A stretch of DNA of 64,000 bases from Escherichia phage I29, in the sequence record ON286975. One strand, 5' to 3'. This document shows, piece by piece, positions 24,211-61,275 of the stretch (position 1 is its first letter; each line of letters begins with the position of its first letter). A model generated the notes under the pieces. That model ran no database searches and was not told the origin of the DNA. It saw nothing but the letters and a program-made list of their open reading frames with translations. A program made the position numbers and the translations under genes.

Positions 24211-25767
24211 TTAATTTTCCATGTTGGATATGGAATTATCTCTGGTTGATGATATCTTAGAAGTGCCGTTGCCAGTGGATCCTGCAGCCATTCCATCACC
24301 AGCTCTACTGATGTCCTGGCCCAAGAGCTTCATCAGCTCTTCCTGATCCATGTCCTCGTCAAATCTTTCATCAAACCCGCCTACTTCAAGAATCTTATTA
24401 ATTACTGCAGGAGTTTTTGGCAAGTAACCTACAGCACCGATCCTCTGGACAAACTTGGAGAAGCTCTCCATATCCACTTCTTCAATCAGACCAGGTTTCA
24501 GTTTAGGCATATCATCATCTTCAAGGATGATACCATTCAATGCCAGAAGCTGTGGAATAAGATCCTTATTGAAGGCTTCAGTGATAATATCTATATCACG
24601 CTGAACAAAATGACCATGGATAGACTGTTTTGACTCAGACAGAGAGAAGGATCCAACGTTATCGTTACCGAGGTTAATAAAGCCAGCACCGAAACGGTCA
24701 AGAATCGCCTTCTTACGGGCATCAATCAAATCTTTAGTGGAATACTGCTTACCCATACCGTCAACCCCCTTCAGGGTCATGGAGTAAAGCTCTTTACCAG
24801 ACTTATCTCTATCAGACGGAAGTATAAAGAAACTTTGCTCACCACTATGGGCGTTTGCTGCGTCAAGCATAAGGTCTGCAACCATTCTCCCTTCCATTGA
24901 ATTCGGGTCAATGCTGGCCTTGTTCAAAATATTGGAAGGAATTTTCAGCTCAAGCACACCACCAAGGTCTTTGGAACAGCCAACAACCTCAAGGTTTTCA
25001 ATCAGAACTTTCTCACGGAAAGATCTGTAGCAACCTATCATAGGTGACACACCTGCAGGGTTAGATTCTGTTCCTGACAGGGTCATGAGCATAAGCTTTT
25101 TAGCAGGGATGAAAATTTCAGGCTCATTAAAGCCTTTTGAAGGCATTGCAGCAAGAGGTCCAGCCCAGCGTGCATTCTGAGTGTTTAGAAATGCATTAGG
25201 TGACTGATAAATACCTGTCAGTGTTCTGCTATTCTTATCAAAAACAAACGGCTCTGATCTGGACAGGCTGGCCTGAGGCCGGAATGCAATTTTATCGATA
25301 AGAAGCATCCCGGCATATTTACCTTCTTTCTCTCTGCGGTATACTTTCTCAAACAGTGAAAAACCATACTCGTTAAAGGTAGCTGCGCTTCTTGCAATAT
25401 CTCGAAGAGTTTGTTGGTTTGCCAAATTACGCAAAGAATACTCTATAAGCTCGGCAGCTTTCTTAGAGTCTTCACTTTTAACATTATAAAGGATCTTAAA
25501 ATCATTGAATGCTTTCGTGATGAAAACATATTTTGTATCTAAGGCAGTAGCAACTGTGGAATCACATTTCATAGTCTCCACTGTGGCAATCAGCTGAGGC
25601 CAACGCAATTCCTCAACCATCATAGATTGCGATTCTGCCATAATTTGGGAAAGTGCGCCAGAACCGATCTCACTCATACGAACATTATGAGTTGGTGCGC
25701 CTGCGTTCCCAGATTTATTCACAGTTTTGGCTGTGGCGTTGTGTTTCCTGCGGTTCTTTTTGGACAC
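24211..25767 (-). CDS. portal protein
   Basis: 518-aa ORF immediately downstream of large terminase; size and acidic C-terminus typical of portals. Confidence 0.7.
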   Translation of the reverse strand: MSKKNRRKHNATAKTVNKSGNAGAPTHNVRMSEIGSGALSQIMAESQSMMVEELRWPQLIATVETMKCDSTVATALDTKYVFITKAFNDFKILYNVKSEDSKKAAELIEYSLRNLANQQTLRDIARSAATFNEYGFSLFEKVYRREKEGKYAGMLLIDKIAFRPQASLSRSEPFVFDKNSRTLTGIYQSPNAFLNTQNARWAGPLAAMPSKGFNEPEIFIPAKKLMLMTLSGTESNPAGVSPMIGCYRSFREKVLIENLEVVGCSKDLGGVLELKIPSNILNKASIDPNSMEGRMVADLMLDAANAHSGEQSFFILPSDRDKSGKELYSMTLKGVDGMGKQYSTKDLIDARKKAILDRFGAGFINLGNDNVGSFSLSESKQSIHGHFVQRDIDIITEAFNKDLIPQLLALNGIILEDDDMPKLKPGLIEEVDMESFSKFVQRIGAVGYLPKTPAVINKILEVGGFDERFDEDMDQEELMKLLGQDISRAGDGMAAGSTGNGTSKISSTRDNSISNMEN

Positions 25768-25782
25768 AAGCTTTACCCCTCA

Positions 25783-25817
25783 AAACAGTATAACAAAATA
25801 GCCCTCGTCAGAGGGCT
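25783..25817 (-). terminator. hairpin with T-rich tail after terminase gene (weak terminator or attenuator)
   Basis: AGCCCTC-loop-GAGGGCT 7-bp stem; minus-strand downstream sequence ATTTTGTTATACTGTTTT. Confidence 0.4.
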
Positions 25818-25867
25818 AGTATCTCCAATTACTTTATTGTACCACATCTAATTAAGATTGGCAACAC

Positions 25868-27415
25868 TTAGATAAAACGCTTGAACATAGAAGGTGATGA
25901 GATTGATGGAATCACACAAGGAAGTGCTACCTCCTCTTTCTCTAGGAAATTAATCGCAGAAGCTACACAGTCGGCCCAGTCGTCTTTTCTGTTAAATGTT
26001 GATCTTTCCCCGTTGAATTTTTCAAGTTCAGTCAGAAATGCTTCCAGAGTATCAGGATGGAAACTGGATTTTACAATCCTCACCATTCCTTGTTGGGCAA
26101 GATTGGCAAAAGGTGAGAACCTTGTCAGTTTAGACTTGTTGGAAGGCATTGGGTCTTCTTCAACCCTGAACCCTTCGGCAAGCAAGGATCTGGAGGAGGT
26201 TAAGAACTCACTCTTACCTGCCTGCCCTGGGTCCACAGAGAAGACGATTATGCAATCATCACCATCGAACTGCGCCTGTTTCCTGATGATCACATCTCGT
26301 TCACCAGCCTTTTTACAGAACTTGCCTTCCAGACCTGTGGAATACCTCCCGTCATCCACGTTCTCAGGACAATAATCACCGGACAGGTAATAAAAGCCGT
26401 CGCTATCTTTACTTACCTTAATACTGGCAGTAAAGTCAGGAAATTTATTACCGGAAGTTCTCTCGGTTCCTGCCTTATCCCATGCCCTGCAAGATACTGA
26501 CCCAAGAGGTACTCTATCGGCATCACGAAGGAAAGATCTTTGAAAATAGTTTGCACCCTCAGGCTTTGCAAACCAGTTACCATGGAGAAGCTGAGCTTTT
26601 TCCAGCTCTGGTAGACCTTCGAGGAAAGCAAGGTATTCTGGGTTGTCTCTCAAACAGACAGGATTATCGAATATTGTTGCGCCTATGAACGAGAATGACA
26701 ACGGTCTTGGCTTGATCTCTACGCCAAGTCCGTTAACCGTGGTGTATTTCTCTATCAACTCTTCTTTAGAGTCTCCCCAGATAAATTCACCGTCGCGTCG
26801 GATAAAATATCTTTTCTTACCGCATTTCTCCGGATCTGGATACCCTTCATCGTCCAACCACCATCTAACCAGTTTGGCAAGCATGTGTTCTGAATCGGGG
26901 TTACAGCTGATAACCATTCTTGATGGATACTTTGACTGAGATCGCAGACGAGACATCAGATAGTCTATCTGCTCCCATTCGAACTGCGTGCCCTCATCGA
27001 AGCAAACCATGGTGTACTCAAGCCCCTGATGGTTAAGCTTATCTTGTACATACTCCATATGGCAGTATTTTACAACAGCTCCCTTTTTGCTTCTATCCCA
27101 CTTACCAGTGTTCGGATCAAACCGTGGAAAAATGAACTTATGATCCTTCTCTCTGAACTTTGGCTTAATGTTTTCAGGCAGATCACTGTAAATAGCTACT
27201 GCTTTAGGCCATAGTCCACCCTCACCTTCCAACTGTGGGGTTGTTCTTCGGAACATAACCACAGAGCTGTGGGGGTCATCAATAATTTTAAGTGGCATCA
27301 ACTGCAAGAGGAACGACTTGCCAGACCCTGCGGCACCGCCGATTACCAAAATATCTGCATCGTTTTCTAGGATCATCTTCTGCTTTTCAGAACACGGTCC
27401 GTAAATCTTAGACAT
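25868..27415 (-). CDS. terminase large subunit
   Basis: 515 aa; Walker A GGAAGSGKS near N-terminus, Walker B-like VCFDEG, nuclease-type C-terminal half. Confidence 0.85.
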   Translation of the reverse strand: MSKIYGPCSEKQKMILENDADILVIGGAAGSGKSFLLQLMPLKIIDDPHSSVVMFRRTTPQLEGEGGLWPKAVAIYSDLPENIKPKFREKDHKFIFPRFDPNTGKWDRSKKGAVVKYCHMEYVQDKLNHQGLEYTMVCFDEGTQFEWEQIDYLMSRLRSQSKYPSRMVISCNPDSEHMLAKLVRWWLDDEGYPDPEKCGKKRYFIRRDGEFIWGDSKEELIEKYTTVNGLGVEIKPRPLSFSFIGATIFDNPVCLRDNPEYLAFLEGLPELEKAQLLHGNWFAKPEGANYFQRSFLRDADRVPLGSVSCRAWDKAGTERTSGNKFPDFTASIKVSKDSDGFYYLSGDYCPENVDDGRYSTGLEGKFCKKAGERDVIIRKQAQFDGDDCIIVFSVDPGQAGKSEFLTSSRSLLAEGFRVEEDPMPSNKSKLTRFSPFANLAQQGMVRIVKSSFHPDTLEAFLTELEKFNGERSTFNRKDDWADCVASAINFLEKEEVALPCVIPSISSPSMFKRFI

Positions 27416-28606: not shown

Positions 28607-28681
28607 TGGTGGCCCTGGGTGGAATTGAACCACCGTCTGGCGATTATGAGTCGCTTGCTTGAACCTTCCAGCTACAGGGCC
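28607..28681 (-). tRNA. tRNA-Met or Ile2 (anticodon CAU)
   Basis: Hand-folded: acceptor GGCCCTG/CAGGGCC, anticodon loop CTCATAA, T-arm GGTGG-TTCAATT-CCACC, encoded CCA. Confidence 0.75.
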
Positions 28682-28763: not shown

Positions 28764-28862
28764 GGTGCTAGGTGATGGAATCGAACCACCTATGTATTCA
28801 ACGACTACCTCGTCTATTTTCAGGATTAAAAATCCTCGCCCTTGCCAAAGGGCTTACCTAGC
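28764..28862 (-). ncRNA. atypical tRNA-like element (possible pseudo-tRNA or small stable RNA); anticodon not assignable
   Basis: 7/7 complementary acceptor ends GCTAGGT/ACCTAGC, D-arm GCCC-TTTGGCAA-GGGC and T-arm GGTGG-TTCGATT-CCATC, but the 46-nt middle has no canonical anticodon arm and contains a tight AGGATT-TTT-AATCCT hairpin; 3' end is ACC-T rather than CCA. Confidence 0.35.
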
Positions 28863-28960
28863 TCAGTATGTTGACCATGTTGCTAGTCGGCGATGACGAC
28901 TGTAACATTTGATAATCCGGTTCTGCTTCCGGCTTTCGCTTAATTACAAGGTCAACAATA

Positions 28961-29051: not shown

Positions 29052-29165
29052 TTTATAAACAATACTGATAATGACACTGATTTTCGAGCAGTTAGTGACT
29101 AGTATAAACGACGATAAATATCAATGCCATTATCTGTATGATTTATGCATTTAAAACTATAAATT

Positions 29166-29389: not shown

Positions 29390-29419
29390 ATATTACACTG
29401 TTAAGCAAAGTTTGTCAAG
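29390..29419 (-). promoter_or_regulatory. sigma70-like promoter (TTGACA-18-TAATAT) upstream of tRNA cluster
   Basis: Minus-strand reading cTTGACAaactttgcttaacagtgTAATATtg, about 60 nt upstream of the first tRNA. Confidence 0.5.
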
Positions 29420-33339: not shown

Positions 33340-34275
33340 ATGACAAATGAGGAACGTATGATGAAGTATTTTAATGCAGACGACCTAGTTGACAAAGGTC
33401 TTGTAACCAGTAGGTATTACCCAGATCTCGGGTTAAAGATCTATAAATATGCTAGAAAAGTATTTTACAACAATTTATGGCATTTGTCCCCTCGTTTACT
33501 GGAGTGCCGAGGCATTGTTGTAGGTAATGAAGGAAATGTTGTGGCATGGCCCTTCACAAAAGTGTTTAACTTGGGAGAAAACTCCACCAACCTGCCTGAC
33601 AATAAGCTTGTGACTGCGGTAGAGAAAAAGAACGGATTCCTTGGTGTGGTATCATCTCATAAAGGTGACCTATTGTTCTCAACAACCGGGTCTCTTGATT
33701 CTCCATATTGTAACCTTGCAAAGGAAACCATCCAAGAGCAATGTGGTAATTTAGATCTTATCAAGAAGGTTATGGGCAATGAAAACATGACATTCATGTT
33801 TGAAATTTGTCACCCTTCAGATCCGCATATTGTTCAAGAAGACCATGGCGCATATTTGATAGGTTGCAGATATAATGATTCTGGAATAATGCTACCAGAA
33901 GCAGCTTTAGATGGGATTGCCAAATACCTTGGTGCAAAACGTCCTCACACTGTGCGTGAAATCCCGTTCAGCTATGCAAAAGAATTAGCTGCAGAAACAA
34001 GGGGCGAAGGGTATATGATCCGTAAGCCTTACTACCCTTATGACCTGCAGCTGAAGATCAAGTCTCCATACTATTTGGCACGGAAGGCCGTAATGAGGGG
34101 TAAAGCTTGGAAGATTTGGGATGATGATATCTTTAAACGTATTGACGAAGAGTTTTATGGCATGGTAAACTTCATTCGTAGCAATTACACAGAAGATGTG
34201 TGGAACTGCCTCCTGGAGCAGGAACGCCGTGAGATACTTGATTGCTATTTTCACAACGAGGACTATATGCAATGA
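33340..34275 (+). CDS. RNA ligase-like nucleotidyltransferase
   Basis: 311 aa; covalent nucleotidyltransferase motif I-like VEKKNGFLG (KxNG); distinct from the DNA ligase at 36746; divergent from the kinase/phosphatase pair. Confidence 0.5.
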   Translation: MTNEERMMKYFNADDLVDKGLVTSRYYPDLGLKIYKYARKVFYNNLWHLSPRLLECRGIVVGNEGNVVAWPFTKVFNLGENSTNLPDNKLVTAVEKKNGFLGVVSSHKGDLLFSTTGSLDSPYCNLAKETIQEQCGNLDLIKKVMGNENMTFMFEICHPSDPHIVQEDHGAYLIGCRYNDSGIMLPEAALDGIAKYLGAKRPHTVREIPFSYAKELAAETRGEGYMIRKPYYPYDLQLKIKSPYYLARKAVMRGKAWKIWDDDIFKRIDEEFYGMVNFIRSNYTEDVWNCLLEQERREILDCYFHNEDYMQ

Positions 34276-57884: not shown

Positions 57885-58934
57885 ATGAATTTAACACCTC
57901 GCAGCACCATGGTACACGGCATGAAAGAAAAACAGAACGGTTTCGAACCTATGAGTAATAAAATGTTTGGTATGCCGGGCGGTATCATGGAAACATACAG
58001 CTACCCAACACCTGTTGTTGACCACGTTCTTTATATCGACGATTTGGAGGACCTGCAGGATCATATGTCTCGTCTGCAGACGATCCGTATGGCTCAGCCG
58101 GAAGAAAGCATTCGTGTGATCATCAATAGCCCTGGTGGTTGCGTGCACATTGCAATGGCTTATCTGCAGGCATTCCGCGAGTCTCAGGCAAGCGTTGTTG
58201 CACATGCTGAAGGGATGTGCTGCTCTGCTGGAACAATCTTATGGCTTGGTTGCAAAGAACGTACTGTGGCTCCGGACACAGAATTTATGTTCCACTACTA
58301 TCAAGGTGGCACTTATGGTAACGGTGTTAACATGAATACTCAGGTCAGCTACTGGAAAAAACGTTTTGAACACCTGATCGAAAAATACTACGGTGGGGTG
58401 CTGACAGAAGATGAGATCGCATCCATCACAGCTGGTGGCGAAGTGTGGTTGGACGGAGAAGAGTTGGCAGCACGCACTGGAGCTATTATTCTGGATGAAG
58501 GCAACATACAACGCATCCAGAACGGACAAAAACCGAAAAAGCTTCTGGCAAAAGGTGATGAAGAAGGCGTGTTAGGTGAAGCAGGTCTTCCGGAGATTCA
58601 TCAGTGCACATCTTTAGATGAGTTAGTTCATGCTGTTGAATCTGCAAAAGCGGGTGGTTCGAAAGGTGATGTTCACACTGTGTTCCTGAATCTGCAGATG
58701 GAAAGTGGCGAGACCGTCCGAATTGCCCTGGGTGAGATTACTTCAGAAGATCTGCAGAGATTCTCTGTCGTTGAACTTCAGGATATTCTGTCTCAATTGA
58801 AGACTACTCTGAACGGCGGTGAAGAGGTTAAGGTGAAAGATAAGACTCGCAAGCGTCTTGTGGACAATATTATTAAAACAGCAAAAGAGCTCAATGAAAA
58901 AATCCTGGGTGCAGGAATTGTCGAAGAAGCTTAA
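57885..58934 (+). CDS. ClpP-family (S14-like) serine protease homolog
   Basis: 349 aa; ClpP-like blocks VIINSPGG, AEGMCCSAGTIL (Ser) and FMFHYYQGG (His); long C-terminal extension; true start may be a downstream Met. Confidence 0.7.
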   Translation: MNLTPRSTMVHGMKEKQNGFEPMSNKMFGMPGGIMETYSYPTPVVDHVLYIDDLEDLQDHMSRLQTIRMAQPEESIRVIINSPGGCVHIAMAYLQAFRESQASVVAHAEGMCCSAGTILWLGCKERTVAPDTEFMFHYYQGGTYGNGVNMNTQVSYWKKRFEHLIEKYYGGVLTEDEIASITAGGEVWLDGEELAARTGAIILDEGNIQRIQNGQKPKKLLAKGDEEGVLGEAGLPEIHQCTSLDELVHAVESAKAGGSKGDVHTVFLNLQMESGETVRIALGEITSEDLQRFSVVELQDILSQLKTTLNGGEEVKVKDKTRKRLVDNIIKTAKELNEKILGAGIVEEA

Positions 58935-58947
58935 ACATTAATTCTAA

Positions 58948-58968
58948 AGCCCTCTTCGGAGGGCTTTT
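58948..58968 (+). terminator. intrinsic terminator after ClpP-like gene
   Basis: AGCCCTC-TTCG-GAGGGCT followed by TTTT. Confidence 0.6.
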
Positions 58969-58985
58969 ATGATCTGGAGATTTGC

Positions 58986-59519
58986 ATGACTTGTGCTAGA
59001 AAACCTGATGAACAACGTAACGCCTACGATGAGTATGTGACACCGGAGTGGTGTGCAGAAGGGCTGTATGACCTTATTCCGTTCCCAGAAGACTGGACCT
59101 ACTTAGAGCCTTGCAGGAATAGTGCCTCAGGTGTGTTCTACTCCCGTATGCCGTTAGGATCTGCATGGGGAGAAATCCAAGAAGGTGTTGACTATCTGAA
59201 TACAGAATACAACCATGTTGACTGTATTATCACCAACCCGCCGTACAGCCTGGCTCGTGAGTTTGTGGACAAGGCGTTGAAAGATGCCGACGTAGTTATT
59301 ATGCTTTTGCGTCTTAATTTTCTGGAAAGCAAGGCCAGATTTGAATGGTGGCTTGATAATGCACCTACCACTGTGATCACAATATCTAAGCGTCCGTCAT
59401 TCCAATCTAATGGTAGAACGGATGGGCAGGCATATGCATATTTTGTGTGGGATAAGAAAAACCGTTTAGACTTGCCGCCATTTATGTGGTTGGCACCCCC
59501 AGAGGTAGACCTGAAATGA
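58986..59519 (+). CDS. small DNA amino-methyltransferase (NPPY type)
   Basis: 177 aa; LEPCRNSASG (motif I-like) and ITNPPYS (motif IV). Confidence 0.55.
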   Translation: MTCARKPDEQRNAYDEYVTPEWCAEGLYDLIPFPEDWTYLEPCRNSASGVFYSRMPLGSAWGEIQEGVDYLNTEYNHVDCIITNPPYSLAREFVDKALKDADVVIMLLRLNFLESKARFEWWLDNAPTTVITISKRPSFQSNGRTDGQAYAYFVWDKKNRLDLPPFMWLAPPEVDLK

Positions 59520-59800
59520 AAATGAGTGCTAAGGACAAATTACACCAGTTAGCGCTAAAACGTCCTGTAACGCTCCCTGACGAGCTTAACTCCATTTATG
59601 ATGCGATTGTAGGGGAGATACAAAATAAAGCGTTAGCAGGCTTTCTGGGATGCGGATTTTCGATAAATCTACCGTCGCATCTCTCAGATTACTTCCCGCA
59701 CATTGTTGGAGATTTAAGGGCAGGAGGTTTGCAGGTAGATGTTGTCGGCATCTCTCCAGAGAAAAATAACACGGTTGCCTACTTGACAGTAACCTGGTAG
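59516..59800 (+). CDS. hypothetical protein
   Basis: ORF track 59486..59800; ATG at 59516 overlaps the methyltransferase stop (ATGA). Confidence 0.35.
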   Translation: MKMSAKDKLHQLALKRPVTLPDELNSIYDAIVGEIQNKALAGFLGCGFSINLPSHLSDYFPHIVGDLRAGGLQVDVVGISPEKNNTVAYLTVTW

Positions 59801-59807
59801 TTGTGTA

Positions 59808-60074
59808 TTGTTGTTCTCAACAAGGGGGTCATTTATGTACAAGTCATTCTCAATTTACTCAAGACAGGCGAAACACTACACAGAGATCCTGATTACTCAG
59901 AAAAAATCTGTAGAAGGTGAGTGGGAATATCACCATAAAATGTTGCGTCCAGATTGGGTTTTTGATAGACTTATTGCCATGATCCCTCTTGGGGAAGTAT
60001 ACCCTCTGACAGCCCATCGCGATGCTTGGGATTTAATTGATTACATAGATTCATTTAAGGAGCCTAGATTATGA
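59808..60074 (+). CDS. hypothetical protein
   Basis: 88-aa ORF. Confidence 0.35.
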   Translation: MLFSTRGSFMYKSFSIYSRQAKHYTEILITQKKSVEGEWEYHHKMLRPDWVFDRLIAMIPLGEVYPLTAHRDAWDLIDYIDSFKEPRL

Positions 60075-60472
60075 AGATTGAGATTACTAAAGAAGGTAAG
60101 AAAGTGTCCGGCAACTATGCAACAGTAATTCGGGATTTAATGTTTGAAGCCACCAAGATAGGTACATCTAAAGTTGGTCAAACTGTTAGTGTGAAAAGTA
60201 ATATCGCCACAGGAGAGAAGGTATTCATTGTGGTCAAAGGGCAGGATCCTGTGGAAGGAACAGTGGGCCGAGGAGGTTACCTGTGCATTTCTGAAGAGCC
60301 TCGTATGCTAGTGGCTGACTCCGCTACTATAGGTGGGAAACGTGTGTGCGAGGCGGATGAGGTAATGATTATCCAGCCTGTTGACCCAGATGATCCAGCA
60401 ACTTGGGTGGTAGGAAATGAAATCTTCTCTTTAGAAGAGTTATCCTTCCCAGCCCCGCGCTCTGTTCAGTAA
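60071..60472 (+). CDS. hypothetical protein
   Basis: 133-aa ORF, ATGA overlap with upstream ORF. Confidence 0.4.
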   Translation: MKIEITKEGKKVSGNYATVIRDLMFEATKIGTSKVGQTVSVKSNIATGEKVFIVVKGQDPVEGTVGRGGYLCISEEPRMLVADSATIGGKRVCEADEVMIIQPVDPDDPATWVVGNEIFSLEELSFPAPRSVQ

Positions 60473-60511
60473 TAATTTATCTTACCAGGGACGGTAGAAG
60501 CAGGAGGTAGC

Positions 60512-60745
60512 ATGAAAGTTAAATTTCTTACAGATTTAGGGTACCCTTCCTTGGTTGACTGTGTTGGTAAAATTGTGGAAGCAAAACGGCTATCTGCAAA
60601 CGAGAATGTTGTCCTGGTTAAAGGGAAGGATTTACTAGCTGCAGGTGCAGAGTCTGGCAGGATCTCTCCTGATTATATGTATTACCTATCTTTAAGTAAT
60701 CTGCCAGAGCGAGGCGGTAAAGGCCTTGAAGTTGTGGAGGAGTGA
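60512..60745 (+). CDS. hypothetical protein
   Basis: 77-aa ORF. Confidence 0.35.
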   Translation: MKVKFLTDLGYPSLVDCVGKIVEAKRLSANENVVLVKGKDLLAAGAESGRISPDYMYYLSLSNLPERGGKGLEVVEE

Positions 60746-61275
60746 CAGGTATGCTTCTGATTAACTGGGAAGACCTCTATGGGGACAAAGACCCTGTTGC
60801 GTTTGTTGATCGTAGGTGGAGATACACTGAAGAACAACTGGCGGCAAAAAATTTAACTGCAAAACGCAGAAAGATCATCCAGTGCAAGTACAAATACGCA
60901 CAGTTTGCTGCAAAAGTGTCTCCACAAATCGAGAGCTTTGTGCTTAAATTGTATGACGAGTACCTCAAATTCAAATTGGATTTTGTACAGGTGTACCGTG
61001 CACAGGTACGACCAGATACCAACATATGTAGATGGAAGGTTGTTTGTGACGGTAAAGATTTGCCGCTCAGCTTGACAATTGAGTGGCGTTATGGGTATCA
61101 TGAGTGTGGTCTGTATGATATTTGGGATGTCATTGTAGATCCTGCTAAGCATCTGAACACAGAGGAGCTGGAATATATCAATAAGGTTATTCTCGATATG
61201 TTTTTCAGCTACACCCATGAAAACTCTGAGAAAGAACGGGATAATTTTCTTGACACCCTCAGCTGCCATTTGTAG
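60742..61275 (+). CDS. hypothetical protein
   Basis: 177-aa ORF. Confidence 0.4.
   Translation: MTGMLLINWEDLYGDKDPVAFVDRRWRYTEEQLAAKNLTAKRRKIIQCKYKYAQFAAKVSPQIESFVLKLYDEYLKFKLDFVQVYRAQVRPDTNICRWKVVCDGKDLPLSLTIEWRYGYHECGLYDIWDVIVDPAKHLNTEELEYINKVILDMFFSYTHENSEKERDNFLDTLSCHL

Follow-up and report, generated by a model that had tools for sequence, protein, structure and literature searches.

The evidence supports the view that the transfer RNA (tRNA) cluster of Escherichia phage I29 (sequence record ON286975) contains a functional gene for a tRNA-shaped RNA of about 97 nucleotides (nt), which belongs to a discrete phage RNA family and is not a standard decoder. The gene lies on the minus strand of the analysed stretch of 64,000 nt, hereafter the window (Table 1). 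The DNA is that of an rV5-like coliphage (Vequintavirus); over the 1-kb stretch around the element, identity reaches 100% with Escherichia phage ime and 98.4% with rV5. An earlier note on this DNA had described an atypical tRNA-like element of 99 nt; this range corresponds to the 97-nt element and two further bases.

Fold and covariation of the RNA family

The predicted minimum-free-energy structure of the element is a cloverleaf which holds a hairpin of 6 base pairs (bp) (AGGAUU/AAUCCU, 3-nt loop) and a second small hairpin. Its energy is -34.2 kcal/mol (z = -4.09), and none of 200 shuffled sequences was as stable. The perfectly complementary 7-nt acceptor ends, the canonical D- and T-arms and the tight 6-bp central hairpin, which the earlier note had read from the sequence, were all recovered. 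The RNA displays the canonical features of a tRNA core, namely a 7-bp acceptor stem, a D arm with G18/G19, a T stem of 5 bp closing a UUCRAUU loop, and elbow pairing at 19:56.

The comparison with relatives which that note had proposed identified 29 distinct homologues (BLAST and motif scans), among which every stem is kept through compensatory changes. Covariation was tested over 20 pairs in a model alignment of the 29 sequences, using 500 shuffles and slid-partner controls. Standard pairs occupied 99.5% of the pair cells and compensatory changes were found in 13 of the 20 pairs. None of the shuffles reached the observed values, and pairing fell to 31-47% in the slid-partner controls. The same cloverleaf was returned independently by RNAalifold. 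The elbow pair 19:56 gave the most informative single result: 19 sequences have G:C and 10 have U:A there, and both loops change together. D-loop UUUGGCAA or UUUGGUAA always occurs with T-loop UUCGAUU, and D-loop UUUGUCAA always with UUAGAUU. Since this pair switches in concert between G:C and U:A, the RNA is under selection for the L-shaped tRNA fold.

Five core residues (A8, U14, U15, A21 and A48) are invariant across the family, which would allow swapped tertiary pairs (8:14 and 15:48). In another reading, the pairs U14-A21 and U15-A20 could lengthen the D stem to 6 bp with a UGGC tetraloop, as in tRNA-Sec and allo-tRNAs; these predicted extra pairs never vary across the family.

Compensatory change in the four cloverleaf stems, in the extra hairpin and at 19:56 excludes a neutrally decaying pseudogene. 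The term pseudo-tRNA, offered in the earlier note, is therefore apt insofar as the RNA is not a standard decoder, and misleading insofar as it implies a gene in decay. A protein-coding function was rejected as well: the only open reading frames (ORFs) overlapping the element are mechanical ones of 59 and 29 amino acids on the plus strand, and the substitutions follow compensatory base pairing. The 'hypothetical protein' features placed over the element in some records are likely mis-annotations.

One of the two unusual modules of the molecule, besides the anticodon-like arm, is the variable region, which measures 31 nt in the window and 38-40 nt elsewhere. It consists of a 5' linker of 7-9 nt, a hairpin and a 3' linker of 9-11 nt. 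Both linkers (GAAAA..., ...AAUAC...) contain the best-conserved unpaired bases of the molecule. The hairpin is present in every homologue; its sequence and length are lineage-specific, and RNAs that are identical elsewhere sometimes differ by an exchanged hairpin. Covariation is seen in the hairpin stem (ACGA/UCGU versus ACGG/CCGU in the copy of Av-05). The possibility of a tRNA with an insertion needing processing, also raised in the earlier note, did not hold. The 31-40 extra nucleotides are located in the variable region and not in the anticodon loop, and their highly conserved flanks argue against a removable insertion. To our knowledge, no bacterial pathway excises such a variable-region segment. 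An antisense regulator was likewise rejected, as the conserved linkers have no complementary sites beyond chance in the 64-kb window.

A family covariance model was built from 22 sequences. Members score 92-116 bits with this model and ordinary type II tRNAs at most 24 bits. The third option of the earlier note, a tRNA-derived small RNA, comes closest to this picture of a discrete tRNA-shaped family. In type II tRNAs, the variable arm is joined to the core by very short unpaired linkers. The long unpaired linkers of the family, together with the low scores of type II tRNAs, led to the rejection of an ordinary type II tRNA (Ser/Leu/Tyr). One family copy is found per genome, and the window holds no second copy.

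Detection programs and databases dealt poorly with the element. ARAGORN reported seven consecutive minus-strand genes (Arg, Tyr, Ser, 'tRNA-???(atcc)', Thr, Met and Pro), of which the unnamed one is the element. The 'atcc' anticodon is an artefact: it requires an all-A/U stem (AUUUU/AAAAU) and an 8-nt loop, counts four bases, and corresponds to the 3' strand of a stem which covaries in the homologues. With the Rfam tRNA model (RF00005), the window copy scored 35.5 bits (gathering score 29) by means of a 26-nt variable-region insertion and a 4-bp anticodon stem around UUUUUAA, about half of the 60-80 bits of the neighbouring tRNAs. In a pooled search at E <= 0.01, no Rfam tRNA match was obtained for the copies of Seunavirus, Mydovirus, Av-05 and muut, and ARAGORN found rV5-type copies only. 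An ordinary type II fold with a clear anticodon, the outcome that would have contradicted the earlier note, was produced by no program, and the annotators disagree. GenBank labels for the identical sequence include tRNA-OTHER, tRNA-Lys (AAA), tRNA-???(atcc), tRNA-TERM/suppressor, tRNA-Pseudo, 'hypothetical protein' or none. The element is unannotated in the rV5 record itself, and the rV5 genome paper, which used tRNAscan and ARAGORN, lists six tRNAs without it (PMC3606486). No transfer-messenger RNA (tmRNA) was detected at the element by ARAGORN, which searches for it too, or by Rfam, and no Rfam match to mascRNA, tmRNA or YrlA was obtained on it; membership among the tmRNAs was rejected. No description of this RNA family was found in the literature searched.

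The anticodon-like arm and the case for decoding

The anticodon-like arm is bracketed by the invariant G26 and G44, which leave room for either 5 bp and a loop of 5-6 nt or 4 bp and a loop of 7-8 nt. In the homologues, the fourth pair of the stem is AU, UA or CG, and the fifth is UA, CG or C.A. Three loop types were distinguished: AUCAA in Henunavirus, phi92-like, UTK0002 and metagenomic copies (9 distinct sequences), C-N-K-C-C-A in Seunavirus and Mydovirus (13 distinct sequences), and UUUUA or UUAUA in rV5 and Av-05 (7 distinct sequences). Opening of the innermost pair gives two of these groups a 7-nt loop (YAUCAAA; UUUUUAA or UUUAUAA) at the cost of a 4-bp stem. In the Seunavirus/Mydovirus group, a 7-nt loop is impossible, and the loop is limited to 6 or 8 nt. 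The canonical combination of a 5-bp anticodon stem and a 7-nt loop with U33 and purine 37 was not found. The earlier note had stated that the centre cannot be folded into a standard anticodon arm; this is correct for an arm of 5 bp and 7 nt, while a forced 4-bp stem with the 7-nt loop UUUUUAA can be obtained (Infernal) and is implied by the tRNA-Lys labels in GenBank.

No part of the molecule changes faster than this loop. Triplets forced upon it differ by lineage (UUU, UAU, UCA and (U/G)CC), and no anticodon is kept among orthologues. Three Mydovirus-type copies that are otherwise identical differ at loop positions 2-3 only (CAUCCA, CCGCCA and CUUCCA), which correspond to tRNA positions 33 and 34. 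One module of the RNA appears to evolve quickly. Pseudoknots of the loop with the downstream A-run, or pairing with the D-loop, were discarded: a single connecting nucleotide makes pairing with the A-run sterically implausible, and neither pairing is conserved across the groups when judged by eye.

The strongest alternative, which is nevertheless judged unlikely, is that of an irregular working tRNA resembling allo-tRNAs. Its amino-acid identity would be given by the long variable arm (for example Ser via SerRS), and it would act as an opal suppressor in the AUCAA/UCA lineages and as a missense or Lys (UUU) reader in rV5-like phages. Loops fitting Y32-N33-NNN-A37-A38 in two of the three groups, a 7/5 acceptor/T branch which suits EF-Tu, a CCA end encoded in most lineages and a CUA-anticodon tRNA in the cluster of a relative are all in line with decoding. 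Likewise, the possible 6-bp D stem with a tetraloop, the long variable arm and U73 resemble tRNA-Sec and allo-tRNAs. In allo-tRNAs, a long variable arm with G73 or U73 has been taken as Ser identity and the anticodons are highly diverse (PMC5389517). However, the D/anticodon helix lacks one layer relative to tRNA in either register and in all 29 sequences, and the AUCAA group would carry A33, whereas U33 is found in 224 of the 235 ordinary tRNAs of the same loci. The 6-nt loops of the Seunavirus/Mydovirus group are closed by a C-G pair, and the rV5 loop is predicted to be closed to 5 or 3 nt (in the window copy, the closing pairs have probabilities of 0.96 and 0.67). The unpaired linkers are far longer than in type II tRNAs. 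Finally, UGA is not strongly avoided, as it ends 13 of 70 long ORFs in muut (UCA type) versus 19 of 71 in the window, a difference which is uninformative on opal suppression.

The likeness to bacterial tRNA-Sec (RF01852) was considered separately. This model is the best Rfam match of the UCA-type copies from Henunavirus and UTK0002, which would also fit a decoding role. Besides the long variable arm and a D stem that may reach 6 bp with a loop of 4 nt, the YAUCAAA loop of some lineages can be compared with CUUCAAA. Membership was rejected on the basis of the branch, which is 7/5 in the family and 8/5 (13 bp) in tRNA-Sec, and of scores (37.6-39.1 bits) below the gathering score of 47. In addition, A33 replaces U33, and the window copy has UUUUA in place of a UCA-containing loop.

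Allo-tRNAs and irregular tRNA-Sec-like tRNAs share with the family a long variable arm and a freely changing 'anticodon' (PMC5389517). Their long D stem with a tetraloop would be a further likeness if the predicted extra pairs form, and their discriminator, U73 or G73, is matched by U73 in most lineages of the family, with A73 in the window. They differ by an 8/4 or 9/3 branch and longer anticodon stems, while the family has a 7/5 branch, a short anticodon helix, 5-6-nt loops and conserved A-rich linkers of 7-11 nt around the variable hairpin. Because both stems of the 7/5 branch are supported by covariation, membership among the allo-tRNAs was rejected; the likeness described here concerns features. 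Some irregular tRNAs of the allo-tRNA type are inactive in translation and have been proposed as regulatory RNAs, and some occur in phages, in polycistronic clusters of irregular tRNAs (PMC5389517). Descent of the family from a type II or tRNA-Sec-like tRNA would be the best fit.

Distribution, likely operon and proposed maturation

The family resides in tRNA operons of rV5-like phages (Vequintavirinae) and phi92-like phages (Stephanstirmvirinae). The homologues originate from Vequintavirus and Avunavirus, Seunavirus (PVP-SE1, 4MG, GAP31 and Cronobacter phages), Mydovirus (Klebsiella phages), Henunavirus (Erwinia phages), the phi92-like Justusliebigvirus (muut, KKP_3264), which is placed in a different subfamily, several metagenomic contigs and one N4-like Salmonella podovirus, UTK0002 (Schitoviridae). 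Between UTK0002 and the Erwinia Henunavirus phages, the common region is limited to a unit of about 113 nt with 88% identity; the RNA therefore moved alone, by horizontal transfer into the N4-like phage. Such an isolated transfer suggests that it could work without a co-transferred partner gene. The conserved 3' motif had no match in 185,579 bacterial and archaeal genomes (one per species), and a bacterial origin or prophage copies were rejected on this ground. A second motif, GGCNATCAAAGCCNGNAAAA, was found only in phi92-like and Henunavirus phage copies, apart from chance matches in coding sequences.

In Escherichia phage V18 (L030:824-951), a deletion has removed tRNA-Ser and the 5' part of the element, and tRNA-Tyr, of which the 5' half is left, is fused with the remaining 3' third of the element; this remnant scores 32 bits with the family model. 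About 18 GenBank records (MG0656xx; H5, H6, H45-H48) bear the name 'Campylobacter phage'; their tRNA region shows 99-100% identity to that of E. coli rV5-like phages, and they may carry wrong host labels or derive from contaminated preparations.

A consensus scan revealed a sigma-70-like promoter upstream of tRNA-Arg, where a promoter 'P(tRNA)' is annotated in the rV5 record. It is likely the start of an operon Arg-Tyr-Ser-element-Thr-Met-Pro, in which the element would be co-transcribed. Downstream of the element, tRNA-Thr follows at a distance of 7 nt.

Table 1. Positions of the element, its parts and nearby features in the window
Feature	Positions	Strand	Sequence	Remarks
tRNA-shaped RNA gene	28862 to 28766	minus		97 nt, including discriminator A73
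Acceptor stem, 5' strand	28856..28862	minus	GCUAGGU	perfect pairing with 28767-28773; compensatory changes in 5/7 pairs (29 homologues)
Positions 8-9			AA	between acceptor 5' strand and D arm
D arm	28838..28853	minus	GCCC-UUUGGCAA-GGGC	3/4 stem pairs covary
Anticodon-like arm	28822..28836	minus	AGGAU-UUUUA-AUCCU	covarying stem; flanked by invariant G26 (28837) and G44 (28821)
Variable region, whole		minus	GAAAAUAG-ACGA-GGUAG-UCGU-UGAAUACAUA	
Variable region, 5' linker	28815..28821	minus	GAAAAUA	A-rich; G and AAA invariant (22 aligned sequences); predicted unpaired in all members
Variable region, hairpin	28800..28814	minus	G-ACGA-GGUAG-UCGU-U	predicted fold
Variable region, 3' linker	28791..28799	minus	GAAUACAUA	AAUAC invariant (22 aligned sequences); predicted unpaired
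T arm	28774..28790	minus	GGUGG-UUCGAUU-CCAUC	3/5 stem pairs covary
Acceptor stem, 3' strand, with discriminator	28766..28773	minus	ACCUAGC + A73	A73 at 28766
Bases 3' of discriminator	28764..28765	minus	CC	followed by UUUUU, then tRNA-Thr; CCA end incomplete in this lineage
Promoter	29390..29418	minus	TTGACA-17-TAATAT	sigma-70-like; upstream of tRNA-Arg
tRNA-Tyr/tRNA-Ser spacer	29052-29165	minus		114 nt
tRNA-Ser/element spacer	28863-28960	minus		98 nt
CAU-anticodon tRNA	28607-28681	minus		
RNA ligase ORF	33361-34254	plus		T4 Rnl1 type; Pfam PF09511, 55.4 bits
Terminase large-subunit region	~24570-27415	minus		corresponds to rV5 58027-60872

A full U73-CCA end is encoded in Seunavirus, Mydovirus, Henunavirus, UTK0002 and the metagenomic copies L047, L053 and L056. 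Other 3' ends are A73-CC-U in the window, ACA in Av-05 and UCA in phi92-like phages; the window has A as its discriminator, and almost every other lineage has U. Where the CCA end is incomplete, 3' trimming and CCA repair would be needed. E. coli is able to trim and CCA-repair T4 tRNAs without encoded CCA, and a tRNA-like maturation of the element is plausible.

The T4 Rnl1-type RNA ligase gene is located about 4.5 kb from the tRNA operon, and its product shares 46% identity with the 'putative RNA ligase' of the phi92-like phage muut. In T4, enzymes of the Rnl1 family repair the damage caused by an anticodon nuclease. The gene suggests a capacity for tRNA repair.

Several other features of these tRNA clusters were recorded. 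The tRNA-Tyr/tRNA-Ser spacer is predicted to form a long near-perfect hairpin (-26.4 kcal/mol, z = -4.2, none of 200 shuffles as stable), which may represent a further processed RNA or an RNase III site in the operon. For the tRNA-Ser/element spacer, a multi-hairpin fold with a closing terminal stem is predicted (z = -2.6). The CAU-anticodon tRNA is called tRNA-Met by ARAGORN versus tRNA-Ile reading ATA in the BASEL record MZ501054, and it may be a lysidine-dependent tRNA-Ile2. Directly upstream of the element, Seunavirus and Mydovirus phages carry a second irregular gene resembling tRNA-Ile(gat) (L002:619-694, L003:618-694, L006:551-625, L004:553-626), with a loop of 7, 8 or 6 nt depending on the phage; an Arg(gcg)-like gene takes its place in 4MG/GAP31. 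Phage tRNA-Ile(GAU) genes (e.g. L008, L013, L014, L015, L034) recurrently have C33 for U33 (loop CCGAUAA), a residue found in 9 of 235 tRNAs overall. A tRNA whose anticodon is CUA (amber-reading) and whose anticodon stem is weak, called tRNA-Pyl by ARAGORN, is present in L056 (2791-2865) and at the 3' end of L047 (7862-7934); the metagenomic relatives which carry it have very large clusters, with 17 tRNAs in 6.5 kb. In Seunavirus, a conserved noncoding stretch of ~180-270 nt without Rfam match lies 3' of the element (L002:~820-996, L004:~752-929, L003:~818-995), and its start, GTGCATTAGCTCAGATTATTTGA, resembles the 5' part of a tRNA. Weak unannotated tRNA-model matches in the tRNA-cluster spacers of muut (L027:879-957, 38.6 bits) and KPP-1 (L020:1074-1152, 34.9 bits) may be further irregular tRNA-like genes. 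Outside the cluster, the rV5 annotation joins three pieces (ORF64ABC) into the terminase large-subunit gene, which would point to intervening sequences in it.

Possible role of the RNA

The favoured reading, to which we give about an even chance of being right, is that of a non-decoding tRNA mimic which is processed like a tRNA. The RNA would be transcribed together with the neighbouring tRNAs, released by RNase P and 3' trimming, and would receive or keep a CCA end. It would not read codons in the ordinary way. Instead, it would present its acceptor end, elbow and anticodon-like hairpin to a tRNA-binding factor of the host (or of the phage). The leading candidate for this partner is a tRNA-targeting defence or toxin enzyme, for which the RNA would be an uncleavable or competing ligand. 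This leading guess of a decoy or ligand for a host defence factor is made because the loop changes fastest, the loops resemble particular host tRNA loops and an RNA ligase is encoded 4.5 kb away. In the host, the loop of tRNA-Lys is CUUUUAA and that of tRNA-Gly is CUUCCAA. The rV5 loop UUUUUAA resembles the former, and the Mydovirus-type CUUCCA the latter.

Several points weigh against this reading. A decoy acting stoichiometrically would face competition from a very large pool of host tRNA. The loop type tracks the phage lineage and not the host genus, with E. coli phages carrying all three types, which is contrary to a host-specific adaptation of the decoy. The AUCAA loop, with Y before and A after, is invariant in four diverged lineages; it resembles an anticodon loop of the form Y-N-NNN-A-A, close to CUUCAAA of tRNA-Sec, so that a decoding role would also fit. 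The rV5 loop can be read as U-U-UUU-A-A and is accompanied by A73; a UUU anticodon and A73 are identity elements of tRNA-Lys. Finally, the loss of the 5' half of the element in V18 indicates that it is dispensable in laboratory culture.

Among the remaining alternatives, a counter-defence or recoding device is somewhat less probable than the irregular tRNA discussed above. Here, amino-acid identity and processing of a tRNA scaffold would be uncoupled from an anticodon-like loop that can be rapidly re-targeted; the loops recall Lys-UUU (rV5 phages), Gly-(U/G)CC (Seunavirus/Mydovirus) or opal UCA (the remaining lineages). The RNA would either trap anticodon nucleases and other tRNA-targeting immune effectors or, in the course of infection, deliberately misread or read through particular codons.

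A slightly lower probability still is assigned to a degenerate tRNA kept as a processing signal, whose shape would guide RNase P and 3' nucleases on the polycistronic precursor and whose mature form would be functionless. The element indeed stands among the spacers and tRNAs of one operon, the acceptor, T and D elements, which processing enzymes read, show the clearest signs of selection, and V18 tolerates its loss. The tRNA-Ile-like neighbour in Seunavirus/Mydovirus, with its 6-, 7- or 8-nt loop, also fits such a signal. However, G26/G44, the covarying anticodon-like stem, the AUCAA loop shared by four lineages and the A-rich linkers would be left unexplained, as would the fact that an unrelated phage acquired the 113-nt unit on its own, and the adjacent tRNAs already supply processing sites.

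A plain, codon-supplementing phage tRNA-Lys(UUU) with an unusually long variable arm, as annotated in BASEL records, is very improbable: the Rfam score above the gathering score with the loop aligned as UUUUUAA (U33, UUU, A37), the GenBank records with 'tRNA-Lys, codon AAA' and the Lys identity elements speak for it, but the nearest relative Av-05 (93% identical) has UAU there as well as U73, remoter orthologues have UCA or 6-nt loops, a 31-nt variable region is known from no tRNA-Lys, the anticodon stem has 4 bp in that register, the score is about half that of the neighbours and the gene is absent from the six-tRNA list of the rV5 paper.

A tRNA-shaped acceptor/T/elbow module to which tRNA-processing enzymes respond, combined with a non-functional or missing anticodon loop, is known from mascRNA, the tRNA-like domain of tmRNA, YrlA and tRNA-Other of Bacillus cereus. 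In contrast to mimics of this type, the non-decoding RNA proposed here keeps all four cloverleaf arms and has a large variable-region module, and it shares no sequence or model match with them. T4 RNAC (species 1) and RNAD (species 2) are also small stable RNAs encoded inside a phage tRNA cluster, and RNAC displays a tRNA-like T arm and a terminal stem; they differ by their length of 119-139 nt and by the lack of a full cloverleaf. No homology was detected, as the family model matched only tRNA-Thr and tRNA-Leu in the T4 tRNA region (L031), with about 20-21 bits. The biological role of both T4 RNAs is still unassigned (PMC3014915, PMC9697503). By analogy, the irregular tRNAs of the allo-tRNA type and T4 RNAC/RNAD are the closest counterparts of the element, which would be a variant among phage-encoded irregular tRNAs and tRNA mimics.

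One gene is currently recorded under many conflicting labels, and the covariance model would provide a single consistent one. Phage tRNA clusters matter in the conflict with tRNA-cleaving defence, and the extra tRNA-like RNAs which they contain, such as T4 RNAC and RNAD, have remained without assigned function for decades. The family described here is well defined, supported by covariation and easily manipulated, and it is present in widely used coliphages (rV5, the Vequintavirinae of the BASEL collection and phi92-like phages). It could thus show the role of a non-decoding phage tRNA mimic.

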